A DNA stretch of 64,000 nt from Kiritimatiellia bacterium (GTDB lineage: Bacteria; Verrucomicrobiota; Kiritimatiellia; RFP12; UBA1067): positions 64,921-128,920 of the forward strand of contig JAFRDO010000077.1 in the NCBI GenBank assembly GCA_017403825.1, in the 5' to 3' direction. The notes beneath the pieces are model-generated. The model was not told the DNA's origin. It ran no database searches and saw nothing but the letters and a program-made list of their open reading frames with translations. Shown here one piece after another: positions 12,652-30,697 of the stretch (position 1 is its first letter; every line of letters starts with the position of its first letter). The position numbers and the translations under genes were made by a program.

Positions 12652-12662
12652 CCTATCCGCCG

Positions 12663-12953: not shown

Positions 12954-12993
12954 GTTGAAGATTATACCAAAAATCGCGCGGGGTGTGGACGAC

Positions 12994-13578
12994 TCAGCCT
13001 TCAGGAACCGAAGCGGCATTGAATGCGTTGTATGCGTTCATGGCCATTTCAGGACCGTCGCGGAGCACGGCTTCGACGGCATCCGCGGCCTTCCCGATCA
13101 CGACATCGATTACCTTGCGCGTCTCAGGGTCGAACTTGCCGAGCACGTGCCCTACGACGTTGCCACGGTCCTTGCCGACGCCGATCTTCACGCGCACAAA
13201 GGCACCGGTTCCGATTCTTTCGATTATGTTCCTTATGCCGTTGTGTCCGCCGCAGCTGCCGCCAGTGCGGATGCGAAGGCGTCCGACAGGAAGGTCGATG
13301 TCGTCCTGCACCACGATGAGATCGGCAGGCGAGGCGTTGTTATATCTCACGACAGGAGCGACTGACTCGCCGGAGAGGTTCATGAACGTCTGAGGCTTCA
13401 CGAGCAGCACCTGTTGCCCTGCGATAACGCACTTCGTCATGAAGCAGCGGAAGGCTCGCTTCGCCTCCCACGTCGCACCCGCTGCGGCGGCAAGGCGGTC
13501 GACCGTCTCAAAGCCGACGGAATGCGGAGTGTCCGCATACTGCTGGCCAGGGTTCCCCAGTCCTACGACAACCTTCAT
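12994..13578 (-). CDS. pth: Peptidyl-tRNA hydrolase.
   Basis: The 'MKVVVGLGNPG' start and the 'NLSGESV' and 'GGHNGIRNI' motifs are present. The start was refined to the ATG at 13578. Confidence 0.9.
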   Translation of the reverse strand: MKVVVGLGNPGQQYADTPHSVGFETVDRLAAAAGATWEAKRAFRCFMTKCVIAGQQVLLVKPQTFMNLSGESVAPVVRYNNASPADLIVVQDDIDLPVGRLRIRTGGSCGGHNGIRNIIERIGTGAFVRVKIGVGKDRGNVVGHVLGKFDPETRKVIDVVIGKAADAVEAVLRDGPEMAMNAYNAFNAASVPEG

Positions 13579-13601
13579 GCTAGCACCCCGCGCACGGAAC
13601 G

Positions 13602-14720
13602 TCAGTTGAACAGGAACTCCACGACATCGCCGTCGCGCATCTCGTAGTCCCTGCCTTCGGGACGAAGCGCGCCGTGTTCGCGCGCGCCAGCCTCGCCGCC
13701 ATACTTCACGTAGTCGTCGAAAGCAACGACCTGCGCCCGAATGAACCCCTTCTCGAAGTCGGTGTGGATGACACCGGCGCACTTCGGAGCCTTCCAGCCT
13801 CGGCGGAATGTCCAGGCCCGGACCTCCTTCGGTCCGGCCGTCAGGAAACTCGCCAGCCCCAGCGTCTCGTACGCCAGCTTGATGGTCCTGTCCAGCGACG
13901 ACTCCTCCAGTCCGTAGCTCTGCAGAAACTCCCTGGCCTCGTCATCGGAGAGTCCGGCAAGGTCGGCCTCCATCTGTGCGCAGACCACGACAGTCTCGCA
14001 GCCCTGCCGGGCCGCGTATTCGCGCAGCGCCACGACGTGCGGATTAGACTCGCCCGTCACGTCGTCGTCGGCCACGTTGGCGCAGTAGATTACCTTCTTG
14101 TCGGTGAGGAAGTGAAGCTCCTTCAGGACGTTCAGTATAGGGTCGCCCTCCGAACGCGGGAAACTCCGAACCGGGAAACCTTCGCCAAGGTGCTTAAGCA
14201 AGGCCTCGCAGGCATCAGCCTCGGGACGCAGCTGCGGCTTGGCCTGCGCCTCCTTGCGGATCTTATCGAACCGCTTCTGAAGCTGCTCCATGTCGGCGAG
14301 GATCAGCTCCGTCTCAATCACCTCCGCATCGCCCACGGGATCGATCGGAGCCGACTTGCCTCCGCCCTCCTGCACGTGGATTATGTCTTCGTTCTCGAAA
14401 CACCTTACAACATGCAAGACGGCATCACACTCGCGTATGTTGGCGAGGAACTTGTTGCCCAGCCCTTCGCCCTTTGACGCGCCCTTCACAAGCCCCGCGA
14501 TGTCAGTGAACGCCACGGTCGCGCGGATGACCTGCTCGGGCTTGGCGATCTTGGCAAGCTCGTCCAGCCGTGCGTCGGAGACCTCTACCACGGCAGTGTT
14601 CGGCTCGATGGTGCAGAACGGATAGTTCTCCGCGGCCGCCTGTTGCCGCTTCGTGAGCGCGTTGAAGAGCGTGGACTTCCCGACGTTAGGCAAGCCTACT
14701 ATGCCGACTGACAGACTCAT
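13602..14720 (-). CDS. ychF: Ribosome-binding ATPase YchF.
   Basis: The 'GIVGLPNVGKSTLFNALT' P-loop is present. YchF-family motifs and the TGS domain follow. Adjacency to pth is the classical arrangement. Confidence 0.9.
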   Translation of the reverse strand: MSLSVGIVGLPNVGKSTLFNALTKRQQAAAENYPFCTIEPNTAVVEVSDARLDELAKIAKPEQVIRATVAFTDIAGLVKGASKGEGLGNKFLANIRECDAVLHVVRCFENEDIIHVQEGGGKSAPIDPVGDAEVIETELILADMEQLQKRFDKIRKEAQAKPQLRPEADACEALLKHLGEGFPVRSFPRSEGDPILNVLKELHFLTDKKVIYCANVADDDVTGESNPHVVALREYAARQGCETVVVCAQMEADLAGLSDDEAREFLQSYGLEESSLDRTIKLAYETLGLASFLTAGPKEVRAWTFRRGWKAPKCAGVIHTDFEKGFIRAQVVAFDDYVKYGGEAGAREHGALRPEGRDYEMRDGDVVEFLFN

Positions 14721-14722
14721 TG

Positions 14723-15475
14723 CTATTTCTCCTTCCAGGCCCTGACGGGCACGAACATCTCGGGATGGCCGCTCCTCGCCGCAACCCGCTCGGCGAAATC
14801 GGCGTCTCGCGCATTCTGAAGCGCGACGTACCAGCCGCAGAACGCGCCGTCCTTGCGGTTCCCTGCTGCGGCAAGGCGCGACAGCGCGGACTTCAGCGCG
14901 CTTTCCGATACGTCCCCTCCGCGCCAGTACGCCTCCTCTATCACGAACGACTTGAACAGCCGCGGCGAAAGTTCGTACACGCGCTCGGGACGCGTCCGGT
15001 TGAAGTCGCCTACGATACGCTCTATCGGAGCGTCAAGACGCGCGAAGCGAGCGTCCTCATAGCCGCATAGCGCCAGCGGCTCCTTCCATGGGTCGCGCAA
15101 CGTTTCGCCGCGCCACGGGCTGCGCGCGTGCATCTCTCGGAACAGGCTCTCCACCGCCAGCAAGTCCGCCATCTCGTCGTCGCGGACGAACCGAACGTCT
15201 ATGAAGAGCCTGCCGTAGACAGTGAACGAATACACGCGGCGACCCACCGAAAGGCTGTAGCGTACCGACGCCAGGGACGGACGCGACTCGCGCAGACCCA
15301 TAAGGCCGAGATAGCGCTCCCACTTGGCGCGGCGCCCGTTCTGCGCGGAAACGAGCCGCCCGGCCTTCTCAAGCACTGCCACCTCGCCGGCGGCAACCGG
15401 CTCCGAAAATTCGCCCGGTGCGCCTAGCGCCGTCAGCACCTTCATCGCGGCGAAAAGGATTGCACCGAAGGTCAT
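14723..15475 (-). CDS. Hypothetical protein, paralogous to the downstream gene.
   Basis: It shares 'RFVR(D/P)DEM(A/E)...' and 'DFN(R/A)(T/R)R(P/G)E...(K/L)(S/H)(F/M)(V/I)IEE' blocks with the 15472..16443 product. The 4-nt ATGA overlap suggests translational coupling. Confidence 0.45.
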   Translation of the reverse strand: MTFGAILFAAMKVLTALGAPGEFSEPVAAGEVAVLEKAGRLVSAQNGRRAKWERYLGLMGLRESRPSLASVRYSLSVGRRVYSFTVYGRLFIDVRFVRDDEMADLLAVESLFREMHARSPWRGETLRDPWKEPLALCGYEDARFARLDAPIERIVGDFNRTRPERVYELSPRLFKSFVIEEAYWRGGDVSESALKSALSRLAAAGNRKDGAFCGWYVALQNARDADFAERVAARSGHPEMFVPVRAWKEK

Positions 15476-16443
15476 TTCGACGCTCCCTTCTTGCCAACGA
15501 TTGAAATCGGCACGAACGACTTCGGCTCGTACGCGCGGCGGACGATTCGTTCCGCATAGACGTTGCGGTAGAGCCGCCCGTCCTGCACCTTGTCGCTGCG
15601 TCCGTTGTAGCGCTCCAAGGCCGTGTACCAGTCGTCGAAGCGGCCTTCGGGACGGTTGGCCGCCGGCTGGCCTGACGCGCCAAAGCCCTTTCGGGCGAGA
15701 TACATGACCGCCGCCCGGACGTTCTGCTCGCTGGTGCCCTCGTTACGCCGCTCCGGCTTTCTGAGGCCGAGCTGCTCCTTGTACGGATTCCAGTCACCGG
15801 GTACGTTGACCTGCTGCGGATCGACCTTCCAGGCCGCCAGGCTCCTTCCGTCGCGTCCTCCTGTCTCCTCTATCATATGCGACTTCACGAGTTCCGGCGG
15901 CAGGTCGTGAATCAGCTTCGCCTGCTCCGGCGTGGACGCGGCCCATTCGCCGCGCCGTGCGTTGAAGTCGGCAACCATGCGCAGTATGAGGTCGTCGTAC
16001 TGCTGGTAACGGGAATCTTCGTAACCGCGAAAGACAGGCAGCTTCCGCGGCTTCTCCGCGGAGGGTTTGGCGGGAGTTCCGACAGGCGGCTTCTCCTCTG
16101 CCGCCTTGGCACGGGACTTCACCTCCTCATCCGCGAAATGCTGGCGATAAAACCGGTTCACGGCCTCGATGGCTTCCATTTCGTCGGGGCGCACGAACCG
16201 GTCGTCAAACCACAGTTCGCCATCCGCATCGAAGTAGAACCTGTTTCCAAGGACCTCCAGCACTTCAACCGCGTCGGAAAGAGACATCTGCGAATCCTTT
16301 CGGCCCATCTCATGCTGGAAGTCGTCGTAGGCGCGGCTTCGCTCGCCAGCCGCAAGAAACACCTCAAGGGCAGGAGCAAAGACCTCTACGGCCTCCTGCA
16401 GCAATCCCACGTCGAGGGCCACGGCAAGTAGAAGACCGATCAT
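15472..16443 (-). CDS. Hypothetical protein, paralogous to the gene at 14723..15475. Start refined to MIGLLLAV.
   Basis: Conserved blocks are shared with its neighbour. The refined start gives an ATGA overlap with the cysE stop. The track ORF starts at 16515. Confidence 0.45.
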   Translation of the reverse strand: MIGLLLAVALDVGLLQEAVEVFAPALEVFLAAGERSRAYDDFQHEMGRKDSQMSLSDAVEVLEVLGNRFYFDADGELWFDDRFVRPDEMEAIEAVNRFYRQHFADEEVKSRAKAAEEKPPVGTPAKPSAEKPRKLPVFRGYEDSRYQQYDDLILRMVADFNARRGEWAASTPEQAKLIHDLPPELVKSHMIEETGGRDGRSLAAWKVDPQQVNVPGDWNPYKEQLGLRKPERRNEGTSEQNVRAAVMYLARKGFGASGQPAANRPEGRFDDWYTALERYNGRSDKVQDGRLYRNVYAERIVRRAYEPKSFVPISIVGKKGASK

Positions 16444-17186
16444 TTTGTCTTTATCGACGGCGCCGGCGGCCGGTTGTAGACGCGAGAATTGGGCGGAACC
16501 GAGTCCTTTAGCCAAACGTTGCCGCCAATCTCGGAATCATGCCCGATGACCGTGTCGCCGCCGAGAATCGTCGCGCCGGCGTAGATCACCACGTTGTCCT
16601 CCACGTTAGGATGGCGCTTGACGCCCTTTACGAGCGCACCTGTGACCGGATCCTTGTCGAACGAGAGTGCGCCCAACGTGACGCCCTGGTAGAGCTTTAC
16701 GTTCTTGCCTATCACCGTCGTCTCGCCGATGACGACTCCTGTGCCGTGGTCGATGAAGAACCTCTCGCCTATCGTCGCGCCGGGATGTATGTCGATGCCG
16801 GTCTTCGAGTGCGCAAGCTCGGACATCACGCGAGGAATGATCGGGACTTTCATTCGGTAGAGTTCATGCGCCAGGCGATGAACCGTCACCGCATAAAGGC
16901 CGGGATAGGCCATCACCACCTCCATGCGGCTGGTCGCCGCCGGATCGCCCTCGTAGGCAGCAATGACGTCCGACTCCACCAGCCGCTTCACCTCCGGCAA
17001 CGCGGCAACGAAAGCGGCTGATATACGCTTGGCGTCCTCATCCGTCATGAGCAGCGCGATCTCGCGCTCCAGGTCGGCCGCCAGGTCGGCAACGGCCGAA
17101 GCGGCGCCAAGCTCACCGTAGACGCACGGATGCAGTACGGCAAGCCCGCGCCGAACGATCCGCTCGACTCTCTGGGGCAGTGTCAT
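16440..17186 (-). CDS. cysE: Serine O-acetyltransferase.
   Basis: An N-terminal SATase helical domain is followed by left-handed beta-helix hexapeptide repeats (GATIGERFFIDHGTGVVIGETTVIGKNV...). The length is 248 aa. Confidence 0.8.
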   Translation of the reverse strand: MTLPQRVERIVRRGLAVLHPCVYGELGAASAVADLAADLEREIALLMTDEDAKRISAAFVAALPEVKRLVESDVIAAYEGDPAATSRMEVVMAYPGLYAVTVHRLAHELYRMKVPIIPRVMSELAHSKTGIDIHPGATIGERFFIDHGTGVVIGETTVIGKNVKLYQGVTLGALSFDKDPVTGALVKGVKRHPNVEDNVVIYAGATILGGDTVIGHDSEIGGNVWLKDSVPPNSRVYNRPPAPSIKTK

Positions 17187-17207
17187 GTCAAGGCATATTA
17201 TACCATA

Positions 17208-18278
17208 TCAGGCGCGCTCGAACGTGAACTTCTCCCACGGAATTGCCACCGGCTTCTTTTCCGTAAGGATCTCGTCCGTATGCATGAGCAGCGGGAATTC
17301 CGCGGCATCGAGCTTGCCGGCCGCACAGAGGACCTTGACGGCCCGCGCCACGCGCACGGCGACGACGAGCGACTCGAGCGTAACGCCCTTCAGCTCGGCC
17401 TTCGCCTCATCGATGTTCATGCCGCGTCCAAGCAGAATGCCGACGAGCCTCGTCCTGCCGCCGTACACCGTGACGTAGAGGTCGCCAGCGCCTACGCACA
17501 GGTTCTCGAGCGTACCCGCGCCCTGAAGGTCGAGGAGCTTCTTCATCTCCTTGACCGCCTGACCGAACACCGCGGCCTGCGAGTTGAAGTGCAGCTCCGA
17601 ATCGATGCCGAACGCCTTCTGATTGAGACCGATCGTAAGCGCAATGCCGAGGGCGTAGCCGTTCTTGAGCGCAACCGCGCTCTCTATGCCGGTAACGTCG
17701 GTGGAAAGCGAGATGTGGTAGTAGTCCGTCGCCATCGCAGCCTTCAGCATCCGCAGCGTCTCGATGTCCTTGCCGCAGAAAGCGACTTCCGTCTGGTCGT
17801 GCGCCACCAGCTCGTAGCTTGTGCAGGGGCCGCCGATCGCGCAGATCGTACGCGAGATCCCCTTCTCGGCAAGACGAGCCTCCCACACCGCAGGATAGGT
17901 GAGCAGCTTTCCGTCAGGCGTGTCCATCAGTCCCTTCGTGACGGAAAGGACCGGCAACGCCGGCGGCAGCTTGGGCAGCACCTCTTCGCCGAACCAGTCG
18001 ACGCCGAAGCTCGACACGCCGCCAATCACGAAATCAGCCCCGACGACCGCGTCCATCATCTCCTCGACCTGATAGAACTCGCATCCCTCCGGGAACGGCG
18101 GAACGCCGTTCGGAAAGTGCTTTGCGAACTTCGGGTGCCTGTTCGTCTTGCGGCACTCGTCAATGATCTCGCGGTCAAGGGGCGTGCCGACAAGCCGCAC
18201 CGTGTTTCCGTTCTCACGGGCCGGGAACGCCAATGCGCTCCCCATCATGCCCGAACCGATTATTACTATCGTAGCCAT
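17208..18278 (-). CDS. gpsA: NAD(P)H-dependent glycerol-3-phosphate dehydrogenase-like oxidoreductase.
   Basis: MATIVIIGSGMMGSALA forms a Rossmann motif. A KN-containing block 'ALKNGYALGIAL' resembles the GpsA C-terminal domain. The start was refined to 18278, which has a GGAAGGAA Shine-Dalgarno. The track ORF carried a 124-aa spurious extension. Confidence 0.6.
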   Translation of the reverse strand: MATIVIIGSGMMGSALAFPARENGNTVRLVGTPLDREIIDECRKTNRHPKFAKHFPNGVPPFPEGCEFYQVEEMMDAVVGADFVIGGVSSFGVDWFGEEVLPKLPPALPVLSVTKGLMDTPDGKLLTYPAVWEARLAEKGISRTICAIGGPCTSYELVAHDQTEVAFCGKDIETLRMLKAAMATDYYHISLSTDVTGIESAVALKNGYALGIALTIGLNQKAFGIDSELHFNSQAAVFGQAVKEMKKLLDLQGAGTLENLCVGAGDLYVTVYGGRTRLVGILLGRGMNIDEAKAELKGVTLESLVVAVRVARAVKVLCAAGKLDAAEFPLLMHTDEILTEKKPVAIPWEKFTFERA

Positions 18279-18328
18279 TTTGCTTTCCTTCCTAGTTGAT
18301 AGATTGCAGTTAGTTGACTCAAGCGTTT

Positions 18329-19249
18329 TCACTTGACGCGGCTGCGAAGAATCTCCACCGCCTTGTACAGCGCTTCCGGATAGTCGGTGCCGAAGGAATC
18401 GAACCCGAACTCCCAGAGCGCGAGATACGTCTCGGGACGGTTCGCCTCCTCCTGCCAAACGCACATGGACGCCTCGACGCCTGCTGCGTGCAGGCGCTCC
18501 ACGCACTTCTTCATCGTCTCCGGCTTCGGGCAGAACGTCGGCTTGCCTTCCGCATCGTAGCGCAGCTGGCAGTGGAGCTGCACATTGTCGATGTCCTTGA
18601 AGTTTTCCGCCGCCGCCTTCTCGAAGAGCGCCATCATGTGCCGTTCGCACTTATCCATCACCTCCGGATTGCCGAAGTCGATGCGTCCCCAGTTGCCGAG
18701 ATGCATCCAGTGAAGGGTCTGCCCTTCCGGCAGCGCGGCCTTGTACCGCTTGATCAGGCCGTAGTCGCACGTGATGAACCAGCACTGCTTCTCAAGTCCA
18801 TGCGCCTTCACCATCTCCGCGACCTTTTCTGGCGGCACGTCCTTCCAGTCGATATGCATCTTGCGGACGGGATTCTCCTCCATCGCGGTGAAAATCGTCT
18901 CCCAAAGCGGAGCGCGGCAGGTGGCGTACTGTGCGCCGCGATAGCTGCCCACATCCTCTTCGCGGAGTTCGGCCCACGTCCACTCGCTGATCTTCCTGCC
19001 CTTCAGTCCGTTGTCGTGGAACGCCACGATCTTGCCGTCCTTCGTGTAGCGGATGTCGCTTTCTGGCGTGTAACCCTTAGCCCACGTGTACAAGAGCGCC
19101 TCCATCGTGTTGTCGGGACGCCCCTTGCCGTCGCCACGGTGTATCAGCGAATGTTTCAGCGTCTCAAGCGCCTCCGGCGTTACGGGACGCTCTCCGAAAG
19201 CCGCCGTCGCACAGACTGCGGCAACAACCGTCATCATTGTCTTTTTCAT
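18329..19249 (-). CDS. Glycerophosphodiester phosphodiesterase (GDPD family), secreted.
   Basis: The signal peptide is MKKTMMTVVAAVCATAAFG. The GDPD motifs 'HRGD...PDNT' and 'FHD' are present. The start was refined to 19249, which has an AAAGGAG Shine-Dalgarno. Confidence 0.75.
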   Translation of the reverse strand: MKKTMMTVVAAVCATAAFGERPVTPEALETLKHSLIHRGDGKGRPDNTMEALLYTWAKGYTPESDIRYTKDGKIVAFHDNGLKGRKISEWTWAELREEDVGSYRGAQYATCRAPLWETIFTAMEENPVRKMHIDWKDVPPEKVAEMVKAHGLEKQCWFITCDYGLIKRYKAALPEGQTLHWMHLGNWGRIDFGNPEVMDKCERHMMALFEKAAAENFKDIDNVQLHCQLRYDAEGKPTFCPKPETMKKCVERLHAAGVEASMCVWQEEANRPETYLALWEFGFDSFGTDYPEALYKAVEILRSRVK

Positions 19250-19277
19250 TTCTGTTTCTCCTTTAAGAGGTGATTGC

Positions 19278-19351
19278 AAAACCACGGAACACACAGAATA
19301 CACGGAATCGAAATTGCATGTTTTCCGTGTTGTTCCGTGATTTCCGTGGTT
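19278..19351. repeat. Second copy of the CACGGAA-rich palindromic element (10-bp terminal inverted repeats aaccacggaa/ttccgtggtt). It lies in the intergenic 5' region of the GDPD gene.
   Basis: The inverted repeat is read directly from the sequence. Three CACGGAA units occur on each arm. It shares the 'aaaccacggaa...cacacggaatcg...ttccgtggtt' architecture with 5414..5497. Confidence 0.55.
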
Positions 19352-19391
19352 GAAAATATATACAAGGAAGCTTTGCCATTGGTTCCTTAAG

Positions 19392-20348
19392 TTAAGCGAA
19401 CTCAAACGTGATGCGTCGCCCGTCCCAGTCTCTCACGAACGCATCCCACGACGCGGGACGCTCTGCCGCCGTACGCTTTGCCGGAAAATAATGGTCGCGG
19501 GTGCGGCAATGCAACACCGCTCGTTCAGGCTCTGTGCGAATCAGCCCCCAGCCCACGTCATGGTCAAGCCCGAACGATGGGAAACCCATCATGCGTATTT
19601 CCCGAGCTTTATCGGAGTAGCCGTTGAAGAGGTAGTTCGTCATCCAGTGGTGATGATGCCCATGCAGATAGCCCACGACCTTCGGGGACTTTGCACAGAG
19701 CTTTCCGATCTTCAAGGCATCCCCCATGTGGTGCGAACAGACGAACGTCGGCTTCTCCAGCGCTGGCAGCGTCTTTTCCAGCCACTTCACCTGATCGTTG
19801 CCCAGCTCGAATCCAGTGCAAGCCGGATAGCTTCCGCGCGTCGTCGGCTCCTTCAGGGAATCAAGCAAGATGAAATCTGCATTCGGTGTCTCGACGACCG
19901 AGACGAACCGACCCGGCACCTTGGTCGTCTTGTCGTAACCGGGGAAGAACTTCAGGAACTCGGCGCGGATGTCGTGGTTGCCCATCGCGAGCGTCAGCTT
20001 GATGCCAGCGTCCGTAAGCGGTTTCAACGCCTCGGCGGCAACTTCATAGTCGCCCGTCTCGCCGAACGCCAACGATATGTCGCCAAGGCCGATGACGTTT
20101 GCCGGCGGGTTCTTTAACGAGAGAATCTCCTGAACAAGAGACTTCGTCATATCCGGCTGCCACGGATATTCGCGCCCCGTGCGATATTGCTGCTTCGACC
20201 ACGGCAACCCCGTGTGAATGTCGCTGATTACACCAATGGAGTACGGGTCAAGCTTTCCCAGTTCTCCCGCTGTCGCGCACCCTTCCATTGCACCCGCCGC
20301 CGCAACCGCAACGGCTCCGCGCATGAAATCTCTTCTTGACACTGTCAT
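19392..20348 (-). CDS. Tat-signal metallophosphoesterase (calcineurin-like), copy 1.
   Basis: The Tat motif MTVSRRDFMRG is present. The metallophosphoesterase motifs 'GDISL', 'GNHD' and 'GHHHH' are present. The start was refined to 20348. Confidence 0.7.
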   Translation of the reverse strand: MTVSRRDFMRGAVAVAAAGAMEGCATAGELGKLDPYSIGVISDIHTGLPWSKQQYRTGREYPWQPDMTKSLVQEILSLKNPPANVIGLGDISLAFGETGDYEVAAEALKPLTDAGIKLTLAMGNHDIRAEFLKFFPGYDKTTKVPGRFVSVVETPNADFILLDSLKEPTTRGSYPACTGFELGNDQVKWLEKTLPALEKPTFVCSHHMGDALKIGKLCAKSPKVVGYLHGHHHHWMTNYLFNGYSDKAREIRMMGFPSFGLDHDVGWGLIRTEPERAVLHCRTRDHYFPAKRTAAERPASWDAFVRDWDGRRITFEFA

Positions 20349-20374
20349 GCTAATGTCTCCGTAATCTGATCGAT

Positions 20375-21655
20375 TCAATCCTTCAAGCATCCTATAGGGC
20401 ACACGACAACTCCATCCTCTGGCCTTACATACGCACATTCGCCGACAGCAGTCAACACCATCATGAATGACGGCTTAGCCATTTTCGCCGTGTCAATGCG
20501 CGCGGCAAGATTCTTAAGCGTATCCGCCCCGCGCTCAATCAACGGTGTGCCGCCGAGTTTGATTTCGATGAGACCGTACCGTCCGTCACGCAGGGAAACA
20601 ACAGCATCGCACTCCAGTCCATTCGCATCATGGTAATGGCAGACGTCCCCGAAATGCGCATCGGCATAAACGCGGAGATCGCGAACCGCCAGCGTCTCAA
20701 ACATGAAGCCAAATGTCTTGAGGTCTTCCATCAGACCTTTCGGCCCAATCCGCAGTGCAGAGGTCGCAATGGACGGATCGGCAAAATATCGCGTATCGGA
20801 CGTCCTGACAGGAGTCTTGCAGCGAAGATTTGGACACCACGCCGGCATGTCCTCAACAGCGAAGATACTCTTGAGCGCATTCAGGTACGAATAGACGGTG
20901 TCAGCATCGAACCCACCGGTCTCGTTAGCCGCAAGATCTGCGTTTATGACCGACGCCGTTGCCTGTGAACCTTGGAGCCGCGCATACGAACGCATCAGGC
21001 GACGCGCACGGTCTTCGTTGCGGGCTACGCCATCAACCTTGGATATGTCACGCTTGACAACGGCATCCAAATAGTCGAACGCTGGGTCAAAAGCTTCCTC
21101 GCCTTTCATTTCGCATGCGATAGGCCACCCACCTCGGCATATTGCCGCCGCAATCTCCGGAAGCTGCGAAACTGCAGGATGTGCGCCGGTGCAGTCCACG
21201 CCGTCGAAAAGCGCACCGAGCGACACCTCGCCGGACGACTCCCCCGATTCATAAAGTGACATCGTCCGCATTTTCACCCAGGCGAAACGTCCCGTTCCGC
21301 TGTGCTTCATCTCATCTTCGTTAGCAGGGACGGCTGACCCGGTCAGAAGAAACATCCCACGATCATCACCGTGATCGACCCGATAGCGAATCGCATCCCA
21401 CAGGATAGGTGCAATCTGCCATTCGTCAATAAGTCGCGGCGATTCACCATCAAGTACCTCTGACGGACGAATTCGCGCCATCAGCATATTGTGGTCGCGT
21501 TTTTCCGGTTCATCCATGTAAATAACGCTCTTGGCCAACTGCTCGCAGGTGGTTGTTTTTCCACACCACTTTATGCCCTCAAGCAGAATGGCACCGGCAG
21601 ATTTGAACCGCCGTTTCAGCACCACATCCAATATGCGCTTTTTGTAGCTATTCAT
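20375..21655 (-). CDS. AAA+ ATPase of the DUF4143 family (ATP-binding protein). It is probably horizontally acquired.
   Basis: The Walker A motif 'GIKWCGKTTT' is present. It has the typical architecture of about 426 aa. By inspection its GC content (about 53-55%) is visibly lower than the flanks (about 62-65%). Confidence 0.7.
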   Translation of the reverse strand: MNSYKKRILDVVLKRRFKSAGAILLEGIKWCGKTTTCEQLAKSVIYMDEPEKRDHNMLMARIRPSEVLDGESPRLIDEWQIAPILWDAIRYRVDHGDDRGMFLLTGSAVPANEDEMKHSGTGRFAWVKMRTMSLYESGESSGEVSLGALFDGVDCTGAHPAVSQLPEIAAAICRGGWPIACEMKGEEAFDPAFDYLDAVVKRDISKVDGVARNEDRARRLMRSYARLQGSQATASVINADLAANETGGFDADTVYSYLNALKSIFAVEDMPAWCPNLRCKTPVRTSDTRYFADPSIATSALRIGPKGLMEDLKTFGFMFETLAVRDLRVYADAHFGDVCHYHDANGLECDAVVSLRDGRYGLIEIKLGGTPLIERGADTLKNLAARIDTAKMAKPSFMMVLTAVGECAYVRPEDGVVVCPIGCLKD

Positions 21656-21694
21656 GGTACGTATTATATCATATCGCTTCTATCAGCGCAATCA

Positions 21695-21777
21695 TTCGGT
21701 CAATTGAGGCGTTTTCGTTCGGTCAGTTGAGACCATTCCGTTCGGTTAGTTGAGACTTTTTTGTTCGGTTAATTGCT
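21695..21777. repeat. Four tandem direct repeats with a 23-24 bp period (TTCGGTYARTTGAG...). They could be iteron or operator-like sites.
   Basis: The units sit at 21695, 21718, 21741 and 21765. The first unit contains the palindrome TCAATTGA. The array lies upstream of the AAA-ATPase start, beside a TGaTATAAT element 7 nt before its ATG. Confidence 0.6.
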
Positions 21778-21794
21778 ATATCTCCGCGCCCCAA

Positions 21795-24700
21795 TTACTG
21801 AATGACGATCACCATGCCGAGCGGCTCCGGCAGCCACGTAAGGCGCACTGTCGCGGGGTCTGTCCCCTCCGTGTAGGTGTAGGTGCTGCCGTTATGGACA
21901 CGCCTGTTCGCCCATGCGCCGTTGACCAGCTCTTCTGTGGAATAGCGCACCACATCAACCACGGCCCCATTCCTGTCCACCGTCTTCGTAGCGGAAAATG
22001 TCCATTCGCCATCGACCTTGTACGCACCCGACTCGGACTGCACCGAACCTTCGCCACCAGCGACGACAAACACGTTCGTCGTCGCCAGCTCGCCGAAGTA
22101 CCGTGCCGAATCGACGTTGCGGTTGCGCACCATCTCGTCCGTCGTCAGGACGCGGTCATAGTAGCGGAACGTCTTCAGCGTGCCGGTGAAGTCCTGTGTG
22201 CTCGCCCCGCCGCCAATCCGGAGAGCGACAACATTCGTTGCCGTCGCCAACCTCGTAGCATCGGAATAATACCCTTGGGCCTGCGTACCGCTTGTCGGTG
22301 CTTCCGTACCTTCAAAGAACGTCGCCGTTTTACCATCTACGATTGCCGTGCCATACGAATAGACCTTGGAGTCGTGTACGAATCTCGGCCTCACGTTCGC
22401 CATGGCGTATGCTGCATCAGCAACATAGTAGAATGCGTAGTTGTAGTCCGTGCTCGTCCGAATGGCCATGGACGCCGCCTGCCAAGGGGAATTAAACATC
22501 AGATAGCCGCAGGTGGCGTTCACCTGATCCTCCACCTTTGCATCCACAAGGACCTGAAGTGAATAGCGCGGATTGAACGTGAATATCCCGGAGTACTGGA
22601 AGTATCCCCCAATGGTGTTGGACGTGTTCGTGAACGCATAGCCGCAGTCCGTCCAGCAACCCTCTCTTGTCGTCTTGTCTTGACGTGAGAGAGTATAGGC
22701 ACCGGGGTCGGCGAGGTTTGCCCATACCTTGGACCAGGCGCTCGTCGGGTTCGTTACGTCGTCCGATTCCACGCCAATGTTCTTGATGCCGTCATAGTGC
22801 AAGACAAGTCCGTTCGGAACGACATCCTCAAGTCCGAAGCCGGCGGCGGTGCGCAGGGCCTTCGTGCAGTTCCACCGCCACGTCAGACGCACCTTTGCGG
22901 GCGACGTGCCGACGGTGTACGTGTAGGATGCCGCACCGTCTGTAACGACCGGCGCGCTCCAGCCATGCGTGGCGGCATTCCACGTTTCAAGGGTATAGCC
23001 CGCGAACGTATATTCAAAGCCGCGTGAATCCGTCTGCACGGCCGCCGGCGCACTGAACGTGTAGGAACCTGAGATTTCATAGTTGCCGTTCGCCTCTGTT
23101 CCAGCGAAGAACGAATGCGAAGTGGCGACAACGACGTTCGTGACGGGCATGATGCCGTGGAAGCGGTAGTCGTCAACCACGCGGTTCTGCGCCAGTTCCT
23201 CGTTCGTGAGGACGCGATTGTAGAAGCGGAAGTTGTGGATCGTGCCGCGGAACTTCCGCAATGTATTGTCGGCAAGGCCACCTATGTAGAAGCCATTGCC
23301 GCTGGCCGTCTGGACTTGCGGCGTGGAGGTGAGCGCCATGCGCACGGCACCTGTCATATAGCGGTTTGCCGATGTCGTCGTGGGAATCGATGTGCCGATG
23401 AAGGCGGCTGTGTAGTCGTCGCCAAGGACAGTGGTCACGTAGCGCAACGGTGTCCCGTTAGGCTGGCATACGTCGGGCCGGGTGGAGGCATTGCCCGTTG
23501 CTTCGCTGTAGCCGTGGGTTGTCCAGTCGAACCATTCGTTTCCAGTGTCCCTGTTATCGCGCCGCAGGGAGATTGATCCACCCTTGTCGAATGTTCCGGT
23601 GTTATACCAGAGGTAGGGCTCGTTGACGCGGTTGTTGCTGGAATTGAGGTAATCTTCCTGGTCGAGGCCGTTGGCTTCAACGGCGATTTGGACCGTCTGA
23701 TTGGAAGGCAGCGTGAAAGCCGTGCCCGGCGTGAACCAGGACTGCTGCTCGAAACGGTAGCCGTCCGTGCGCCATTCGCCGGGCTTCGTGACGCCGCTCT
23801 TGGCATGGAAGGTCATGTCCCATCCGCCTGCCGGGGCGAGGTTCTTCCATGCGGTCGTGTCGCTGCTGTGCGGCTGGTCGGCACCGACGTTGCGGATACC
23901 GTCGTATTGGAGGAGAAGTCCGTCCTGCACATAGTCGGCGGTCGTGTAGCGCGTCACGATGCCATCGCCCCCCGTCCACTGCCATGTGATGCGAATGCGG
24001 TCGGAGGCGGTGACGGCGACGGATGTGCCACTCTTCGTCTGAGCCGTGCCCCATGTGCCAGTGGTATCGTCCCATGTCTCCAATGTATAGCCCGTGCAGG
24101 TGTAGGAGCGTCCATCAACCGTCTTCGAGGCAGGAGCGGAAAAGGCATAGCCGCTGGCATCGACAGCATACGCACCTGCCTTCTCGTTGCCCGAAACGCT
24201 TGCCGTCGACGAAGCAATCACCGCGTTTGTCGTAGGAATCGAGGAAACGAGTTTTCCAAAGAAGCGCACATCATCCACCGCGCGGTTCCAGACTCGCTCT
24301 TCTTCAGAAAGGGCACGATTATAATGGCGGTAGGACTTGATTGTGCCGAAAAGCGGCTGTCCGGCACTCGTTGCGGTGGAACCAGGATTGCCGCCTATAC
24401 CCCAAGCCGATGTTGTCATCGACTCAAGCGTCTTGCCGGAAGCGAGGTCTTTCTTGCCACCAAGCGCAGTCCCGGCAAAAAACCATGCGTTCGTAACATC
24501 GATAAGTGCAGTAACATAGCTGAATGACGTGCCGGAAATGTCCGCAGCAGATGCAAAATAATTATAGTGGTTGAGGCGAATGCGATTCCCAGCGGAGTTG
24601 GATGCGCCTCGGACACCAATGGAGTATGTTTTCCAATAAGTACTATCACTGTCCCATGGGAAGTATACGTAGCCGATGCCCGAACCGTGGTCGGCTGTCT

Positions 24701-25076
24701 TCGCGTCAATAAGCGCCTGAACGGTGTAGGAAGTTCCGAACGTGAACGCAGTGGTGCTGGCATAGGTCGTCTTGCCTTTGAAGTCAAAGCCGTCCTTGCC
24801 CCATTCACCCAAATTCAACTTGGACTGTCGCAGATCGTAAGTCGCACCACCAGATCCGAGGTTCTTCCATGTTGTCGTTGTCGTGGAATGGTCGGCATTC
24901 AGGCCCATGTTTCGGATGCCGTCGTAGTGGAGCACAAGCCCATCCTGCACATACGAATCGGCGTCGTAGTTGCCCGCAGTCCAGTATTTGAGACCTGCAT
25001 CAGCGGCGGCTGGAATCAGCGTCGCCATCAACGCCGAAAGCAGTGCACTTCTCTTGAACATTTCCTGGATTTTCAT
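21795..25076 (-). CDS. Family-B giant secreted protein. It has three LamG-like (ConA-like lectin) plus Ig-like modules and the C-terminal tail LPEPLGMVIVIQ.
   Basis: The signal peptide ends ...AAADA|G. Three roughly 350-aa modules each begin 'YVQDGL.LHYDGI.N.G'. Each contains the LamG-type motif 'G(T)(I/L)K(S/T/N)(Y/F)R.Y(N/D)R.L(S/T)..E'. Each ends 'VR(I/L)TW(Q/K)(W/Y)'. An AAAGGAAAA Shine-Dalgarno is present. Confidence 0.7.
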   Translation of the reverse strand: MKIQEMFKRSALLSALMATLIPAAADAGLKYWTAGNYDADSYVQDGLVLHYDGIRNMGLNADHSTTTTTWKNLGSGGATYDLRQSKLNLGEWGKDGFDFKGKTTYASTTAFTFGTSYTVQALIDAKTADHGSGIGYVYFPWDSDSTYWKTYSIGVRGASNSAGNRIRLNHYNYFASAADISGTSFSYVTALIDVTNAWFFAGTALGGKKDLASGKTLESMTTSAWGIGGNPGSTATSAGQPLFGTIKSYRHYNRALSEEERVWNRAVDDVRFFGKLVSSIPTTNAVIASSTASVSGNEKAGAYAVDASGYAFSAPASKTVDGRSYTCTGYTLETWDDTTGTWGTAQTKSGTSVAVTASDRIRITWQWTGGDGIVTRYTTADYVQDGLLLQYDGIRNVGADQPHSSDTTAWKNLAPAGGWDMTFHAKSGVTKPGEWRTDGYRFEQQSWFTPGTAFTLPSNQTVQIAVEANGLDQEDYLNSSNNRVNEPYLWYNTGTFDKGGSISLRRDNRDTGNEWFDWTTHGYSEATGNASTRPDVCQPNGTPLRYVTTVLGDDYTAAFIGTSIPTTTSANRYMTGAVRMALTSTPQVQTASGNGFYIGGLADNTLRKFRGTIHNFRFYNRVLTNEELAQNRVVDDYRFHGIMPVTNVVVATSHSFFAGTEANGNYEISGSYTFSAPAAVQTDSRGFEYTFAGYTLETWNAATHGWSAPVVTDGAASYTYTVGTSPAKVRLTWRWNCTKALRTAAGFGLEDVVPNGLVLHYDGIKNIGVESDDVTNPTSAWSKVWANLADPGAYTLSRQDKTTREGCWTDCGYAFTNTSNTIGGYFQYSGIFTFNPRYSLQVLVDAKVEDQVNATCGYLMFNSPWQAASMAIRTSTDYNYAFYYVADAAYAMANVRPRFVHDSKVYSYGTAIVDGKTATFFEGTEAPTSGTQAQGYYSDATRLATATNVVALRIGGGASTQDFTGTLKTFRYYDRVLTTDEMVRNRNVDSARYFGELATTNVFVVAGGEGSVQSESGAYKVDGEWTFSATKTVDRNGAVVDVVRYSTEELVNGAWANRRVHNGSTYTYTEGTDPATVRLTWLPEPLGMVIVIQ

Positions 25077-26230: not shown

Positions 26231-27394
26231 ATGAAACGCCGCCATGTACTCATTCTCGTCACGCCCGCATACCAGCCAAGGCTTGCCGGCATTGCGCGCT
26301 ACGCACGTCAGCATGGCTGGCAACTGACAATTCTCGACCGAATCGCACGCTATCCGCGCGGCTGGAACGGCGACGGCGTACTCGCGACGCTCCGCGAACT
26401 TCCCGAAATCGTCGCATTCGTCAAATCGCTTCGCAGACGCCACATTCCCGTCGTCGATCTCACATTCAACCATCCGGAACTTCATCTCCCGCGCGTGAGC
26501 GGCGACCACTTCCTGATGGGAAAGCTCGCAAGGCGGCATTTCGAGGAGCGCAACTTCCGTCATTTTGCATGGTTCTCGACCAACTGGCTCAACATCCACC
26601 GCCTCCGCTACAACGGCTTCTCGCAATCCACCACCCCCAACGCCAAACTCTCGACTCTAAGCCCCCAACCTTTTAAATGGATCTTCTCGGAAGAGGTTCC
26701 ACCGGAACGCATCGACGATTTCGCATGGTTTGACCGCTGGCTTGTAAAGAAGCTCGCTTCAGCCCCCAAGCCGCTCGCCCTTCTCGCCTACGACGACGCA
26801 GACGCCGCCCGTGCGCTTGGCGCCTGCCTTGCCGCCGGCCTCTCCGTGCCCGAAGATGTCGCCATACTCGGCATCGGCGGCGATCGCCTCATCTGCGAGA
26901 ACCAACCCGTTCCGATCTCCTCCGTCGAACACGACCAGGGACGTACTGGCTACGAAGGCGCCGAGCTTCTCGACCGTCTCATGGATGGAATGAAGCCGCC
27001 GACAAAGCCAATTTTGATTCCGCCGCGCGGCATCACTGTGCGCGCATCCTCAGACGTCATCGTCGCAGCAAGCCCCATCGTCCGCAAGGCGCTTGAATAC
27101 ATCCATTCCAATCTCGAAAAGCAATTCGGTCTGGCGCAGATCGCAGCCGACACGGACGTTTCGCGCGCAACCCTCACGCGACTGTTCAAACAGGAGACGG
27201 GGCGATCCATTGGTGCCGAGATCTTGCGCCAACGACTCGAACTGGCCAAACGGCTGCTCTCGAACAACAATCTGTCAATCGCGGATATTGCGTACCGCAC
27301 AGGCTTCTGCAACCCAGCCTACTTCACCAACACTTTTCGCAATTCCACCGGCCTCACCCCAAAGGCGTGGCGAGGCGGCCACAAAAGCTTATAG
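26231..27394 (+). CDS. AraC/XylR-family transcriptional regulator. An N-terminal periplasmic-binding-protein-like sugar-sensing domain is joined to a C-terminal AraC HTH.
   Basis: The C-terminus 'LAQIAADTDVSRATLTRLFKQETG...IADIAYRTGFCNPAYFTNTFRNSTGLTPKAWR' is a canonical AraC HTH. The N-terminal approximately 270 aa resemble an XylR-type ligand domain. Confidence 0.85.
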   Translation: MKRRHVLILVTPAYQPRLAGIARYARQHGWQLTILDRIARYPRGWNGDGVLATLRELPEIVAFVKSLRRRHIPVVDLTFNHPELHLPRVSGDHFLMGKLARRHFEERNFRHFAWFSTNWLNIHRLRYNGFSQSTTPNAKLSTLSPQPFKWIFSEEVPPERIDDFAWFDRWLVKKLASAPKPLALLAYDDADAARALGACLAAGLSVPEDVAILGIGGDRLICENQPVPISSVEHDQGRTGYEGAELLDRLMDGMKPPTKPILIPPRGITVRASSDVIVAASPIVRKALEYIHSNLEKQFGLAQIAADTDVSRATLTRLFKQETGRSIGAEILRQRLELAKRLLSNNNLSIADIAYRTGFCNPAYFTNTFRNSTGLTPKAWRGGHKSL

Positions 27395-27398
27395 ACGT

Positions 27399-30300
27399 CT
27401 ATTGGACGATAATCATCATGCCGAGCGGCTCGGGCAGCCACGTGAGGCGCACCGTCGCGGGGTCTGTCCCCTCCGTGTATGTGTAGGTGTTGCCGTTATA
27501 GACCTGACGGTTCGCCCATGCGCCGTTGACCAGCGTTTCGATGGAATAGCGTACCACGGGAACCGTCTCGCCGCTCTTGTTGACCGTGGTCGCAGCCGTG
27601 AACGTCCATTCGCTCTCGACTTTGTACGCACCCGTCTCTGTCTGCGTTCCGCCGCCCGCGACGACAAACACGTTCGTCGTCACCAGCACACCAAAATAGC
27701 GGGCCTGGTCAACCTCGCGGTTGTGCGCCACTTCCGCATCGGTGAGGACACGACCGTAGAAACGGTAGCTCTTGAGCGTTCCCTTGAAAAGTTCGTCTGT
27801 CCTCGGATAGTGTCCGCCGATGCTGTAGCCATTGACAAACATAACATTTGGCGGCGTCTTGGTCGTTGAAACGGCGTGGCCATTCGCCCATCCCGACGCC
27901 GTCCACGGAGCCGTTGTCCCAGCAAACATCACGCCGTTCGTCCTGTCGAGCATAGCCGTCGCATAGGAGAAATGCTCAGTTCCGGATGCCGCGCAGATTG
28001 ACGGGCGACTTCCGGTCGCACCCTGGACTACCAGATAAAACGTGTTGACTCTGCCGTTCCAGTCCGAGCTGCGCATGCCGAACGCGCAATTGTCCCAGCT
28101 CTGTGCAGCGTAGCCGCACATGACGTAGCCGATTCCGTTCTGGTCGGCAGGCGTCGCGTCAACGAGCGTCTGTATGGAATACCGCTCGGGAACTGCGAAT
28201 GACGTCCATTCATGGAAGACAGCGTCCTTGGCGAAGATGAAACCGTTGTCTGTCCACGCTCCCCTCGACGCATCCTGATTCCACGATTCCACGCCGCCGC
28301 CGTCGCCGAACTCGAAGCCCCCACAGTGCCATTGGTGCTGTAGCGCGTCAGGTCATAGACGCCAGGATTGGCGCAATTCACCCATTTCGCGGCGGTTGCA
28401 TCATGATCGGCATTCGGCCCAGCGTTGCAGATGCCGTCGTAGTTCACGATGAGACCGTCCTGAACGTAGTCATCTATGCCGTAATCGGCGGCGGTGCGCA
28501 GACCGTGCGTCGTCCGCCACTTCCATGTGAGGCGGACAAGTCCTGCGGCGGTCGTGTAGGCGTAGGACGCCCCCTCGTGCAAAACTGCCGCACTCCACGC
28601 ATTGCCGTTCCACGTCTCAATAGTATAGCCGGCACAAGCGTAATCTATGCCCTTGACAGTCACGTTCTCTGGCGCCGTGAAGGTGTAGGAGCCTGAGACT
28701 TCCCACGGTCCTTCAGACTCGTTGCCGTGAAGGAACGGGCGGGTCGTGTCCGAGGCCACCACCACGTTCGTAACGGACGGACGATGGAAGAAGCGCCATT
28801 CATCGACCCGGCGGTTCTGCTCCAGTTCAGCGGTCGTCAGAACCTTGTTCGGATAATAGCGAAGATTCTTGACCTTGCCTACGATAGAACCGTCCTCGGC
28901 GCCAAATCCTCCAAGCCGGAAATCATTACAGGTGTAGGCCGCAAGAGCCCCATCGAACTGGCGGAATCCGGTCGTGTAGTCACCGCTCGTCGGCGCAATT
29001 GTCCCGTCAAACGTGGCCATCGTACTGTTGCCGCCGTTAAGAATGGTCGTTGCGTAATCGTAGCGGCGCGACGTATGTGAGAAAATCGGTATATTGTTCT
29101 TATCCAGATTCTGTGCGTTTGAATAGCAGTAGTTGTCATCTCTGGACAACGCCAACGCGAATTTGGCGTACGCACCGGAATAGACATGCGCCCACCTTGA
29201 CAGCTGTCCGCCATCTGCGCTGGCATCTATAAGCGTCTGAACAGTGAAGGTGTCAGGAACCGAGTAGGCATTTCCGGTGAGCTGGAAAATGCTCTTGCCC
29301 CTGAACGCATAACCGTCCACCTCCCAATGTCCCTGGTCGCCGACCAGCCACATAAATGGCACTAGGTTGCGGGCGGCACCATCTGAGCCGAGGTTTGCCC
29401 AAACCGAGGCAGTCTGGCAGTGGTCCACATTGGCGCCGGCGTTGCGGATGCCGTCATAGTGCCAGACCAACCCATCCTGAACGTAGTCCTCCACGTCGTA
29501 AACGACAAGATACCCTTCGCCCTCGGGACGCGCATACTGCCACGTAAGGCGGACTTTCCCCGACGTGTTGGAGAGTGTGCAGGATGTCTCGCCGTCATGC
29601 GCGGCAGGTTCGCCCCATGCCGAGCCATTCCACGTTTCCAGCGTGTAGCCGCCAAGGACATAGCGCCGTCCCTTGACCGTGCGGCTGGCGGGTGCGGTGA
29701 AGGTGTAGCCCTCCGCATCAAGCGCGAAATGGTCGTCCGCGACGCCACCGATGGTGCAGGAGACAACGACGTTCGTCACGGGAATCGCGGCGCGACGCCC
29801 AAAGAAACGCGCTTCATCCACCACGCGGTTCCACGCCACCTCCTCATCCGAGAGGACACGCGTATAAAAGCGGAAGTTCTTGATGGTTCCCTTAAAAAGC
29901 TCATCCGCCCTCGGATAGTGTCCGCCGAGCGAAATGCCCCAGTCGCGCACATGGGAATCCTTGCTCAAATCTGAGCGATAGCTACCGTCCGTCGCACCCC
30001 ACGGCGCCGTTGTGCCGGGAAACATGACACCCTCCCCGTTGCTTTTGTGCAGAGCCGTCGCATACGAGAACGGGACGGTCGCGGACGATGCGGCAAAGTA
30101 CGGACGTTGCGAAGATACGAGATAGAAGGAATTGTTTGGAGTGCCGCCGCCGGCCGACGTTCGTACCCCCATGCAGCAGGCCGCCCAGTTGCCAGGATGG
30201 ACACTCCCGGAAAGGCCGGTGTCGTTATAGTCGCACATAATGTAGCCGATGCCGTTCTGATCACCAGACGTTGCATTGACAAGCGTCTGAATCGAGTAGT

Positions 30301-30697
30301 CCTTGGGGACGGTGAAGGATGCCATTTCATGGAAGATCGAATTCTTGTCGAACATGAAGCCGGCTGGCTCCCACGCGCCCTTTTCGGTGGAGTTTGTCCA
30401 AGCCGAATTGACATAGGAATAGCGCACCATGTCATAAGTCGCGCCGCCACTGCCAAGGTTCTTCCATGTCGTGGTGTTCGGGTCGTGGGCGGCGTTCGGC
30501 CCCGCGTTGCGGATGCCATCGTAATTGAGTACAAGCCCGTCCTGCACGTAGTCGCCAACGTCAAAGGACTTGTACGCGGGGTTGTCCCAATACTTTATGC
30601 CCGCGTCAGCGGAGGTTGCGATCAGCGCCGCCAAACACGCTGGAAACAGCCGGTTGGCTATTTTTGATGTTTCGTGCATCTTCATTGTCGTTCTCAT
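27399..30697 (-). pseudogene. Family-B giant secreted protein paralog, split by a frameshift near 28318..28322. The track shows it as two overlapping ORFs, 27399..28292 and 28028..30697.
   Basis: In the upstream ORF, module 3 breaks off at '...YDLTRYSTNGTVG'. It resumes in the other frame as 'GFEFGDGGGVESWNQDASRGAW...'. The last 90 aa of the long ORF are Arg/Ser-rich out-of-frame junk. The C-terminal 100 aa are about 80% identical to the 21795 gene and end LPEPLGMMIIVQ. Confidence 0.6.

Follow-up and report, generated by a model that had tools for sequence, protein, structure and literature searches.

Four exported proteins encoded in a 64,000-nucleotide stretch of Kiritimatiellia DNA (contig JAFRDO010000077.1; the whole stretch is referred to here as the window) end in a C-terminal tail of seven to nine residues with the core G(-6)-x-x-Φ(-3)-x-Φ(-1)-[R/K/Q](0), where Φ is a hydrophobic residue, position 0 is the last residue before the stop codon, and P is frequent at -8. 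The tail is kept far beyond chance, is restricted to the Kiritimatiellia lineage, and, as judged from sequence comparisons, is a separable module that terminates at least 10 families unrelated by sequence. The reading we favor, to which we give about even chances, is that the tail would be a Kiritimatiellia-specific modular tag that docks in trans, by beta-augmentation, onto a shared envelope receptor. We found no published description of it in the literature on Kiritimatiellia sorting signals, LamG, or C-termini; neither Pfam nor NCBIfam holds a model of it, and its bearers are annotated as hypothetical at NCBI.

The minus strand of the window (60% G+C) carries three genes whose products terminate in PLGM-x-I-x-I-[QR] directly before the stop codon, as an earlier reading made from the letters alone (the sequence-only reading) had claimed. 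Gene B1 (21795..25076, minus strand) encodes a protein of 1093 amino acids with a Sec signal peptide and three LamG-like (Pfam Laminin_G_3) plus Ig-like modules, followed by the tail P-L-G-M-V-I-V-I-Q and a TAA stop (21795..21824). Its C terminus is ...LTWLPEPLGMVIVIQ (longer excerpt, ...RLTWLPEPLGMVIVIQ), and the protein is identical to the NCBI hypothetical protein IJH50_11980 of a Kiritimatiellae bacterium; window proteins are identical to "hypothetical proteins" of a metagenome-assembled Kiritimatiellae bacterium from the rumen, and ruminant gut assemblies contain the same contigs. Gene A (52867..55095, minus strand) encodes 742 amino acids: behind a signal peptide, three jelly rolls of the LamG/LNS type lead to a C-terminal Ig-like domain (AlphaFold and Foldseek) and then a free tail, P-L-G-M-T-I-F-I-R, with a TAG stop (52867..52896); it ends in ...EYRAPLGMTIFIR (further excerpt, ...VEYRAPLGMTIFIR). 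The third gene, B2 (27399..30697, minus strand), is a paralog of B1 that ends in ...LPEPLGMMIIVQ, with the tail P-L-G-M-M-I-I-V-Q and a TAG stop (27399..27428). The tail of B2 is present, but the open reading frame (ORF) is broken by a frameshift at a G5 run (about 28317-28323) that leaves split ORFs of 889 and 225/297 amino acids. The split into 889 plus 225 amino acids recurs in independent assemblies of this strain from ENA and Logan, so B2 is either a real pseudogene, a slippage site, or a sequencing error common to the assemblies. The term "giant" that had been applied to these proteins was generous, as their actual size is 742 to 1100 amino acids.

A six-frame scan found the strict motif on no further ORF of the window, and the back-translated pattern CCNCTNGGNAYN...ATH...ATHMRNTRR had two matches in the window compared with 0.00 in window shuffles. 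Scanning of ORF ends with a position-specific scoring matrix (PSSM) detected a weaker form of the tail on gene C (33928..36081, minus strand), which encodes a 717-amino-acid protein with a signal peptide and a beta-helix-like fold, belongs to the "autotransporter-associated beta strand repeat" superfamily, and shows no similarity to A or B. The C terminus of C is ...VTAERGLMLKVK (...AERGLMLKVK), so that E-R-G-L-M-L-K-V-K and a TAG stop (33928..33957, minus strand) place G at -6, L at -3, V at -1, and K at 0.

The tail is kept in homologs of A, B, and C down to about 30% identity. We profiled the 120 listed homologs of A (35 to 100% identity) and the 120 listed homologs of B (30 to 100% identity). 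Among those of A, 111 of 120 fit G..Φ.Φ[RKQ] at the very end and 118 of 120 have G at -6. The corresponding counts for B are 87 and 91 of 120, and another 22 B homologs carry a P-F-Φ4-R variant; these reflect a B subfamily with the shorter form (N/K)-P-F-Φ-Φ-Φ-Φ-R. Of the 240 A and B homologs, 229 end in R, K, or Q; position -8 is mostly P, position -5 is T, M, or L, and positions -3 and -1 are I, V, or L. PLGM-x-I-x-I-[QR] is one variant of this looser core, G-x-x-Φ-x-Φ-[RKQ]. At a single threshold, the PSSM matched 237 of 270 homolog C-termini and 0 of 246,202 internal positions, a result far from chance expectation. Family C, which was left out of PSSM building, likewise keeps the tail (for example, in a homolog ending ...NGYLAPRGMAVVIQ). 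A profile search of 1.84 billion cluster representatives yielded a C superfamily of 1654 members; 115 of its 144 new top hits fit G-x-x-Φ-x-Φ-[RKQH] at the C terminus, with terminal H being rare, and the rest are mostly near variants. The tail could have proved absent from orthologs of the window proteins, as the sequence-only reading had allowed; it is instead retained in orthologs and paralogs of every family tested.

In the tail DNA, Arg is written with six codons and Ile with three, and each of the three stop codons occurs. Since codon usage is free, selection acts on the peptide, and conservation of the DNA itself as a terminator or as the ribosome-binding site of the next gene was rejected because codons and stops vary freely. 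Separately, an identical stretch of tail DNA (ACGCCGCTTGGCATGGTTATCATCATCAAGTAA) was seen in family A genes of ~780 amino acids from six loci (L005, L008, L041, L056, L094, and L107; loci fetched around relatives are numbered with the prefix L). The first four of these come from four GTDB species representatives listed as different species, so the identity could reflect recent transfer or very close relatives.

Predicted structures place the tail outside the folded domains. The AlphaFold model of A, built from an 80-sequence alignment, has a predicted local distance difference test (pLDDT) score of 89.3 and consists of three jelly rolls, which Foldseek matched to neurexin and laminin LG domains (E about 1e-11), and an Ig-like domain. 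The last Ig strand spans residues 725-732; beyond it, residues 733-742 form coil whose pLDDT drops from 69 to 49. For C, the model (pLDDT 86) resembles a beta-helix, has no significant PDB match, and again ends in 10 residues of coil (pLDDT ~50). The tail is therefore predicted to be free and flexible in the monomer, in agreement with the earlier claim that it is appended after the last domain. Because both models leave it as coil, the tail is not the last Ig strand; the idea that it is simply the last strand of a shared Ig domain was rejected on these grounds, on the internal Ig-like domains of B, which have no tail behind them, and on bearers that lack Ig domains altogether. The same models qualify the earlier statement that A and B are non-homologous. 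The blastp comparison is indeed not significant, but both families consist of LamG jelly rolls with a C-terminal Ig-like domain (Pfam and Foldseek), so they differ in sequence and not in fold.

Further bearers were found in DNA fetched around relatives, as loci of ~20 kb. These include beta-helix proteins with passenger-associated-transport-repeats (PATR; PF12951), a GDPD phosphodiesterase fused to LamG, a 1416-amino-acid protein with an L-type-lectin domain, proteins of 1002 and 1130 amino acids without known domains, and one 469-amino-acid protein. PATR and beta-strand-repeat proteins are passenger-type proteins in other lineages. In one locus (L130, positions 1..23155; ENA WILK20 scaffold_151), ~7 of 9 called genes in a run of secreted proteins bear the tail or a near-variant; they encode four PATR proteins, a LamG protein, the GDPD-plus-LamG enzyme, and the L-type-lectin protein. 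Another bearer family, E (L128 and L129), has a beta-helix together with a PKD domain and with a choice-of-anchor Q domain; the latter scores 38.5 and 45.3 bits against NCBIfam NF041518 (cutoff, 25). This domain stops 10 residues before the stop codon, and what remains is the tail alone. "Choice-of-anchor" denotes domains of surface proteins that are anchored elsewhere by LPXTG, PEP-CTERM, or the type IX secretion system (T9SS) (bioRxiv 10.1101/2023.03.06.531300); by this domain assignment, the tail occupies the place of known C-terminal anchors. One ORF (L108, 3528..6815) joins a B-type module (LamG plus Ig, matching B1 residues 2-367) to a complete A protein, indicating that A and B modules recombine. 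Together with the coil models, the range of at least 10 families rules out a motif confined to the window paralogs.

All bearers have a signal peptidase I-type signal peptide or an anti-sigma membrane anchor. The majority of the window's secreted glycoside hydrolases do not carry the tail, so it marks only a subset of exported proteins. The best explanation is that it tags a subset of Sec-exported, non-lipoprotein envelope proteins: LamG and lectin modules, PATR and other passenger-like beta-helix proteins, a few enzymes, and the sensor modules of anti-sigma factors outside the cytoplasm.

The distribution of the tail was examined by scanning the strict pattern (PLGM-x-I-x-I-[RKQ..]-stop) over 185,579 species genomes, one genome per species; at the DNA level, this pattern samples a few percent of real tails. 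There were 60 hits. Four of them terminate intact family A ORFs of ~780 amino acids, all in assemblies labeled Kiritimatiellae/Kiritimatiellia or Verrucomicrobia, and two more, from one Kiritimatiellae assembly, lie on short or fragmentary ORFs (61 and 127 amino acids). The only other strict-hit ORFs of appreciable length were from Gemmiger (402 amino acids) and a truncated ORF from Pyramidobacter, against a chance estimate of ~4; four strict-pattern hits in viral contigs were also counted as chance. With a looser tail rule, 60 of 720 ORFs of at least 200 amino acids in 551 kb of Kiritimatiellae DNA were positive, compared with 2 of 414 in control loci. Two loci of the C superfamily, with G+C contents of 48% and 53%, likewise have the tail; one belongs to a named Kiritimatiellia assembly. 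The tail is restricted to the Kiritimatiellia lineage.

Genes for tail proteins lie in loci of the sugar-utilization type, with Peripla_BP_3/AraC regulators, transporters, and GH28, GH20, GH97, GDPD, and Metallophos enzymes. The Peripla_BP_3 plus AraC regulator family recurs beside tail genes in 23 loci, with GDPD, Metallophos, and GH20 genes; in the window, such a hybrid regulator (Peripla_BP_3 plus AraC HTH, Pfam), whose sugar-sensing part resembles a periplasmic binding protein, lies between B1 and B2 (26231..27394, plus strand). These neighborhoods suggest substrate-specific utilization loci, possibly for phosphodiester-containing glycans.

Families A, B, and C each include ORFs that start with an extracytoplasmic function (ECF) sigma factor (r2 plus r4) or zf-HC2 anti-sigma domain (L133, 10001..12691; L079, 1476..4301; L080, 879..3797; L091, 7084..10659; proteins P0011, P0016, P0017, P0020, P0037, P0039, P0085, P0170, and P0256-P0259). 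The N-terminal domain is followed by a membrane helix and an 80- to 100-amino-acid low-complexity linker, and the ORF then continues in frame into an AGGAG-type ribosome-binding site 7 to 9 nucleotides before an ATG. The part that begins at this internal ATG has an ordinary signal peptide and an entire A, B, or C module ending in the tail. Such ORFs may, to judge by their layout, yield two products, a membrane-tethered sensor and a free secreted copy. The fusion design is found independently in three families, and because tagged modules are fused to ECF sigma or zf-HC2 parts, they are also extracytoplasmic sensor domains. One such fusion gene overlaps an ECF sigma gene by 4 nucleotides and precedes a GH97 gene.

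We compared the tail with known C-terminal signals. PEP-CTERM, LPXTG, GlyGly-CTERM, PGF-CTERM, and MYXO-CTERM are likewise short C-terminal tags found on unrelated surface proteins of one lineage, and PEP-CTERM-type tags take the same position after choice-of-anchor and beta-strand-repeat domains as the Kiritimatiellia tail. However, a PEP-CTERM-type signal consists of a membrane helix of ~20 residues and a basic cluster, whereas the tail offers five hydrophobic residues and a single R, K, or Q. With five hydrophobic residues and one basic or polar end, it cannot be a membrane anchor of the PEP-CTERM, LPXTG, or GlyGly-CTERM type. The letters PEP occur in only some B tails (LPEPLG...); tails of A (RAPLG), C (AERGL), E (DLPAT), and PATR proteins do not have them, and 655 kb of Kiritimatiellae DNA held no PEP-CTERM-like tripartite terminus, with no NCBIfam CTERM match. 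The T9SS C-terminal domain also marks a Sec-exported subset for the surface, and A and B, too, end in an Ig-like sandwich. That domain is a beta-sandwich of 70 to 100 residues, while the tail families share only their last ~9 residues by blastp; families C, E, and PATR lack a terminal Ig domain, and T9SS comes from a different phylum group. No match to TIGR04183 or TIGR04131 was found. The sequence-only reading had set aside PEP-CTERM, LPXTG, GlyGly-CTERM, and T9SS, and the lack of any model match, membrane helix, or 70- to 100-amino-acid domain upholds it. Its further proposal, of an undescribed sorting or secretion tag or a beta-strand motif, stands insofar as the tail is modular, undescribed, and terminal; no processing enzyme was found nearby, and the neighborhoods examined contained no sortase-like gene or exosortase.

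The tail also resembles signals read by strand addition. The tail has the same G-x-x-Φ-x-Φ spacing, also at the C terminus, as the beta-signal of outer-membrane proteins (consensus ζ-x-G-x-x-[Ω/Φ]-x-[Ω/Φ]; bioRxiv 10.64898/2026.09.25.754295), which forms a strand and is recognized by BamA/BamD through beta-augmentation. The beta-signal, however, is the last strand of a barrel, usually with Phe or Trp as the last residue, whereas tail bearers are modeled as soluble LamG, Ig, or beta-helix proteins with a coil tail. In lectin-like bacteriocins (Llps), a short unstructured C-terminal peptide docks on BamA strand 1 by beta-augmentation (bioRxiv 10.64898/2026.09.25.754295; PMC13463100). Like the tail proteins, LlpA/B as well as L-type pyocins join a lectin domain to an unstructured C-terminal Φ-x-Φ peptide, and by analogy the Llp peptide would be the best precedent for how the tail acts. 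Unlike the tail proteins, Llps have an MMBL beta-prism, act on other cells, and carry hypervariable peptides that usually lack Gly and are capped by an aromatic residue or His. In Kiritimatiellia, the tail is uniform, retains its Gly, ends in R, K, or Q, and is carried by numerous families of proteins that the cell itself exports, with a LamG or beta-helix fold.

A peptide that is conserved, modular, strictly terminal, lineage specific, and free in the monomer has the signature of a tag read in trans. Under the favored reading, G-[T/M]-x-Φ-x-Φ-[R/K/Q]-COOH, often after P-x, would be this tag. An exported, folded protein would carry it as a free flexible peptide; the peptide would form one amphipathic beta-strand, hydrophobic at -1, -3, and often -5, with Gly at -6 as a hinge; and the strand would be captured in trans, by edge-strand addition to a shared envelope receptor, with the terminal carboxylate and the R, K, or Q side chain setting the register. 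Because the G-x-x-Φ-x-Φ spacing equals that of the beta-signal, our guess for the receptor is an outer-membrane beta-barrel, perhaps an Omp85 relative or a dedicated anchor barrel. Glycan-binding proteins might in this way be tethered or displayed at the outer membrane, and the tag would fill, in this lineage, the role of PEP-CTERM, T9SS, or LPXTG. We infer the recognition in trans, the beta-augmentation, the receptor, and the destination from the features described above.

Several observations weigh against docking of this kind. No Omp85, protease, or receptor gene adjoins the tail genes in any of the loci examined. A 733-amino-acid PDZ-domain protein does adjoin the L130 tail cluster on the opposite strand, but it was rejected as a receptor candidate because it was seen only once and did not recur in other loci. 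Neither the window nor ~650 kb of related DNA contained a beta-barrel gene with which the termini could be compared; the sole outer-membrane gene seen in the sampled DNA encodes a TolC-like OEP, a type of protein without a terminal beta-signal. The tail is not a canonical beta-signal, as its hydrophobic dyad is aliphatic rather than aromatic and is followed by an extra terminal R, K, or Q, and the P-F-Φ4-R variant dispenses with the glycine. A beta-signal mimic on dozens of the cell's own periplasmic proteins might jam BAM. The inner-membrane anti-sigma fusions fit docking in the periplasm equally as well as surface display, and the AlphaFold models, being of monomers, are compatible with a tail that packs in cis or onto a partner of the same family.

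A more specific form of the proposal, which we regard as rather unlikely, is a new envelope sorting route in which the tag would hand folded, barrel-less passengers to a dedicated outer-membrane barrel (an Omp85 relative or an anchor barrel). Its cargo would comprise PATR beta-helices, lectin modules, some enzymes, and anti-sigma sensor modules on long periplasmic linkers. If true, the route would amount to an autotransporter divided between one common translocator and a multitude of tagged cargos, and it would allow sensing of polysaccharides across the envelope by a single polypeptide.

Other explanations could account for parts of these data. The tail of one tagged protein might enter the sheet edge or groove of another and so build envelope fibers, lattices, or hetero-complexes made of lectin and beta-helix proteins. 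In chaperone-usher pili and Bacteroidota type V pili, too, a terminal amphipathic donor strand completes the sheet of another subunit; the tail is free, amphipathic, and capable of forming a strand, several tagged families occur in tandem clusters (L130; L019; four in the window), and all bearers are beta-rich with exposed sheet edges. We nevertheless consider donor-strand assembly unlikely, because an acceptor would have to be common to LamG-plus-Ig proteins, beta-helices, and choice-of-anchor Q domains. In pilus systems the acceptor has an incomplete Ig fold or an open groove; the terminal domains look complete in the A and C monomer models, with no missing strand; tail bearers are heterogeneous and are not pilins, and the anti-sigma fusions are hard to place in a polymer. 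An equally low probability attaches to a regulatory or quality-control signal, read by a periplasmic PDZ-type protease or chaperone, that would govern turnover and anti-sigma proteolysis. DegS reads the termini of outer-membrane proteins, and Prc/CtpA read C-terminal tails. The fusion of A, B, and C members to zf-HC2 anti-sigma or ECF sigma parts, the fusion gene that overlaps an ECF sigma gene by 4 nucleotides ahead of GH97, the PDZ protein beside the L130 cluster, and the strict requirement for the C-terminal end, which is typical of PDZ-type recognition, all suit such a signal. PDZ ligands, however, normally end in a hydrophobic residue rather than R, K, or Q, and the PDZ neighbor is a single occurrence. 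Bearers are mostly free secreted proteins (an enzyme and PATR proteins, for example) that would have no evident need of a common degradation signal, and the choice-of-anchor Q context points to anchoring.

The tail might also have no function in trans, being either what is left of a degenerated PEP-CTERM-type signal or a short structural cap packed against the last domain. Some B tails begin L-P-E-P-L-G..., like the start of a PEP-CTERM signal, and beta-strand-repeat relatives from the PVC (Planctomycetes-Verrucomicrobia-Chlamydiae) group often carry PEP-CTERM. The PEP motif is nevertheless confined to a minority, and a remnant would hardly keep G(-6), Φ(-3), Φ(-1), R/K/Q, and the distance to the stop across families at 25 to 35% identity and across 1654 clusters; the tail is coil on two different folds, and one cap could hardly fit unrelated domains. 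We therefore consider this explanation very improbable. Least credible of all is that tagged lectins are toxins, in the manner of the lectin-like bacteriocins of Pseudomonas, whose beta-signal mimic blocks the BamA of competitors. The pairing of a lectin-type domain with an unstructured Φ-x-Φ peptide does recall Llps and L-type pyocins, but the tail proteins have Sec signal peptides, sampled loci suggest many paralogs per genome, some members are anti-sigma fusions, and their genes lie in sugar-utilization loci with AraC-type regulators, glycoside hydrolases, and GDPD. The fold, moreover, is LamG or beta-helix rather than an MMBL beta-prism, and the cap is R, K, or Q rather than aromatic or His.

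Several neighboring features of the window were also recorded. Directly downstream of A lie two paralogous genes for secreted, tail-less proteins of ~304 and ~322 amino acids (50952..51866 and 51863..52831, minus strand), for which no informative Pfam domain was found, just a weak DUF5074 match. Relatives of the pair neighbor family A in 35 of 64 loci, and a 1626-amino-acid multi-repeat relative is present in L119. The pair was rejected as a partner of the tail because it tracks family A alone. On the other side of A, 97 nucleotides separate the gene from a preceding RND pump pair (membrane fusion protein, 58086..59258; ACR_tran, 55192..58089). That slot is often taken by a gene for an outer-membrane factor; here it holds A, and the vicinity has no TolC-like gene. 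In the stretch that separates the stop codon of B1 from the beginning of a gene for an AAA_14/DUF4143 ATPase (20375..21655), there are 3.5 copies of a 23-bp unit (21695..21775) with an ACCGAAC-N-GYCTCAA core (three matches compared with 0.02 expected). The same ATPase family is found near tail-bearing genes again in L131/L132 and L133.

Each of the LPXTG, PEP-CTERM, and T9SS tags opened the way to finding an envelope machine dedicated to it, and such tags are routinely used to predict surface proteins. The Kiritimatiellia tail would be the shortest such tag known and would fall outside the plan of a motif, a membrane helix, and a basic cluster. As a tag, it would give a one-line rule for predicting the set of bearers and a peptide bait with which to search for the receptor, and it may connect the way beta-signals are recognized with the way soluble proteins are sorted. 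One bearer family alone comprises more than 1600 sequence clusters, and current annotation calls every one of these proteins hypothetical. The tail marks likely glycan-binding, adhesin-like proteins of abundant and almost uncultured polysaccharide degraders of the rumen and gut.

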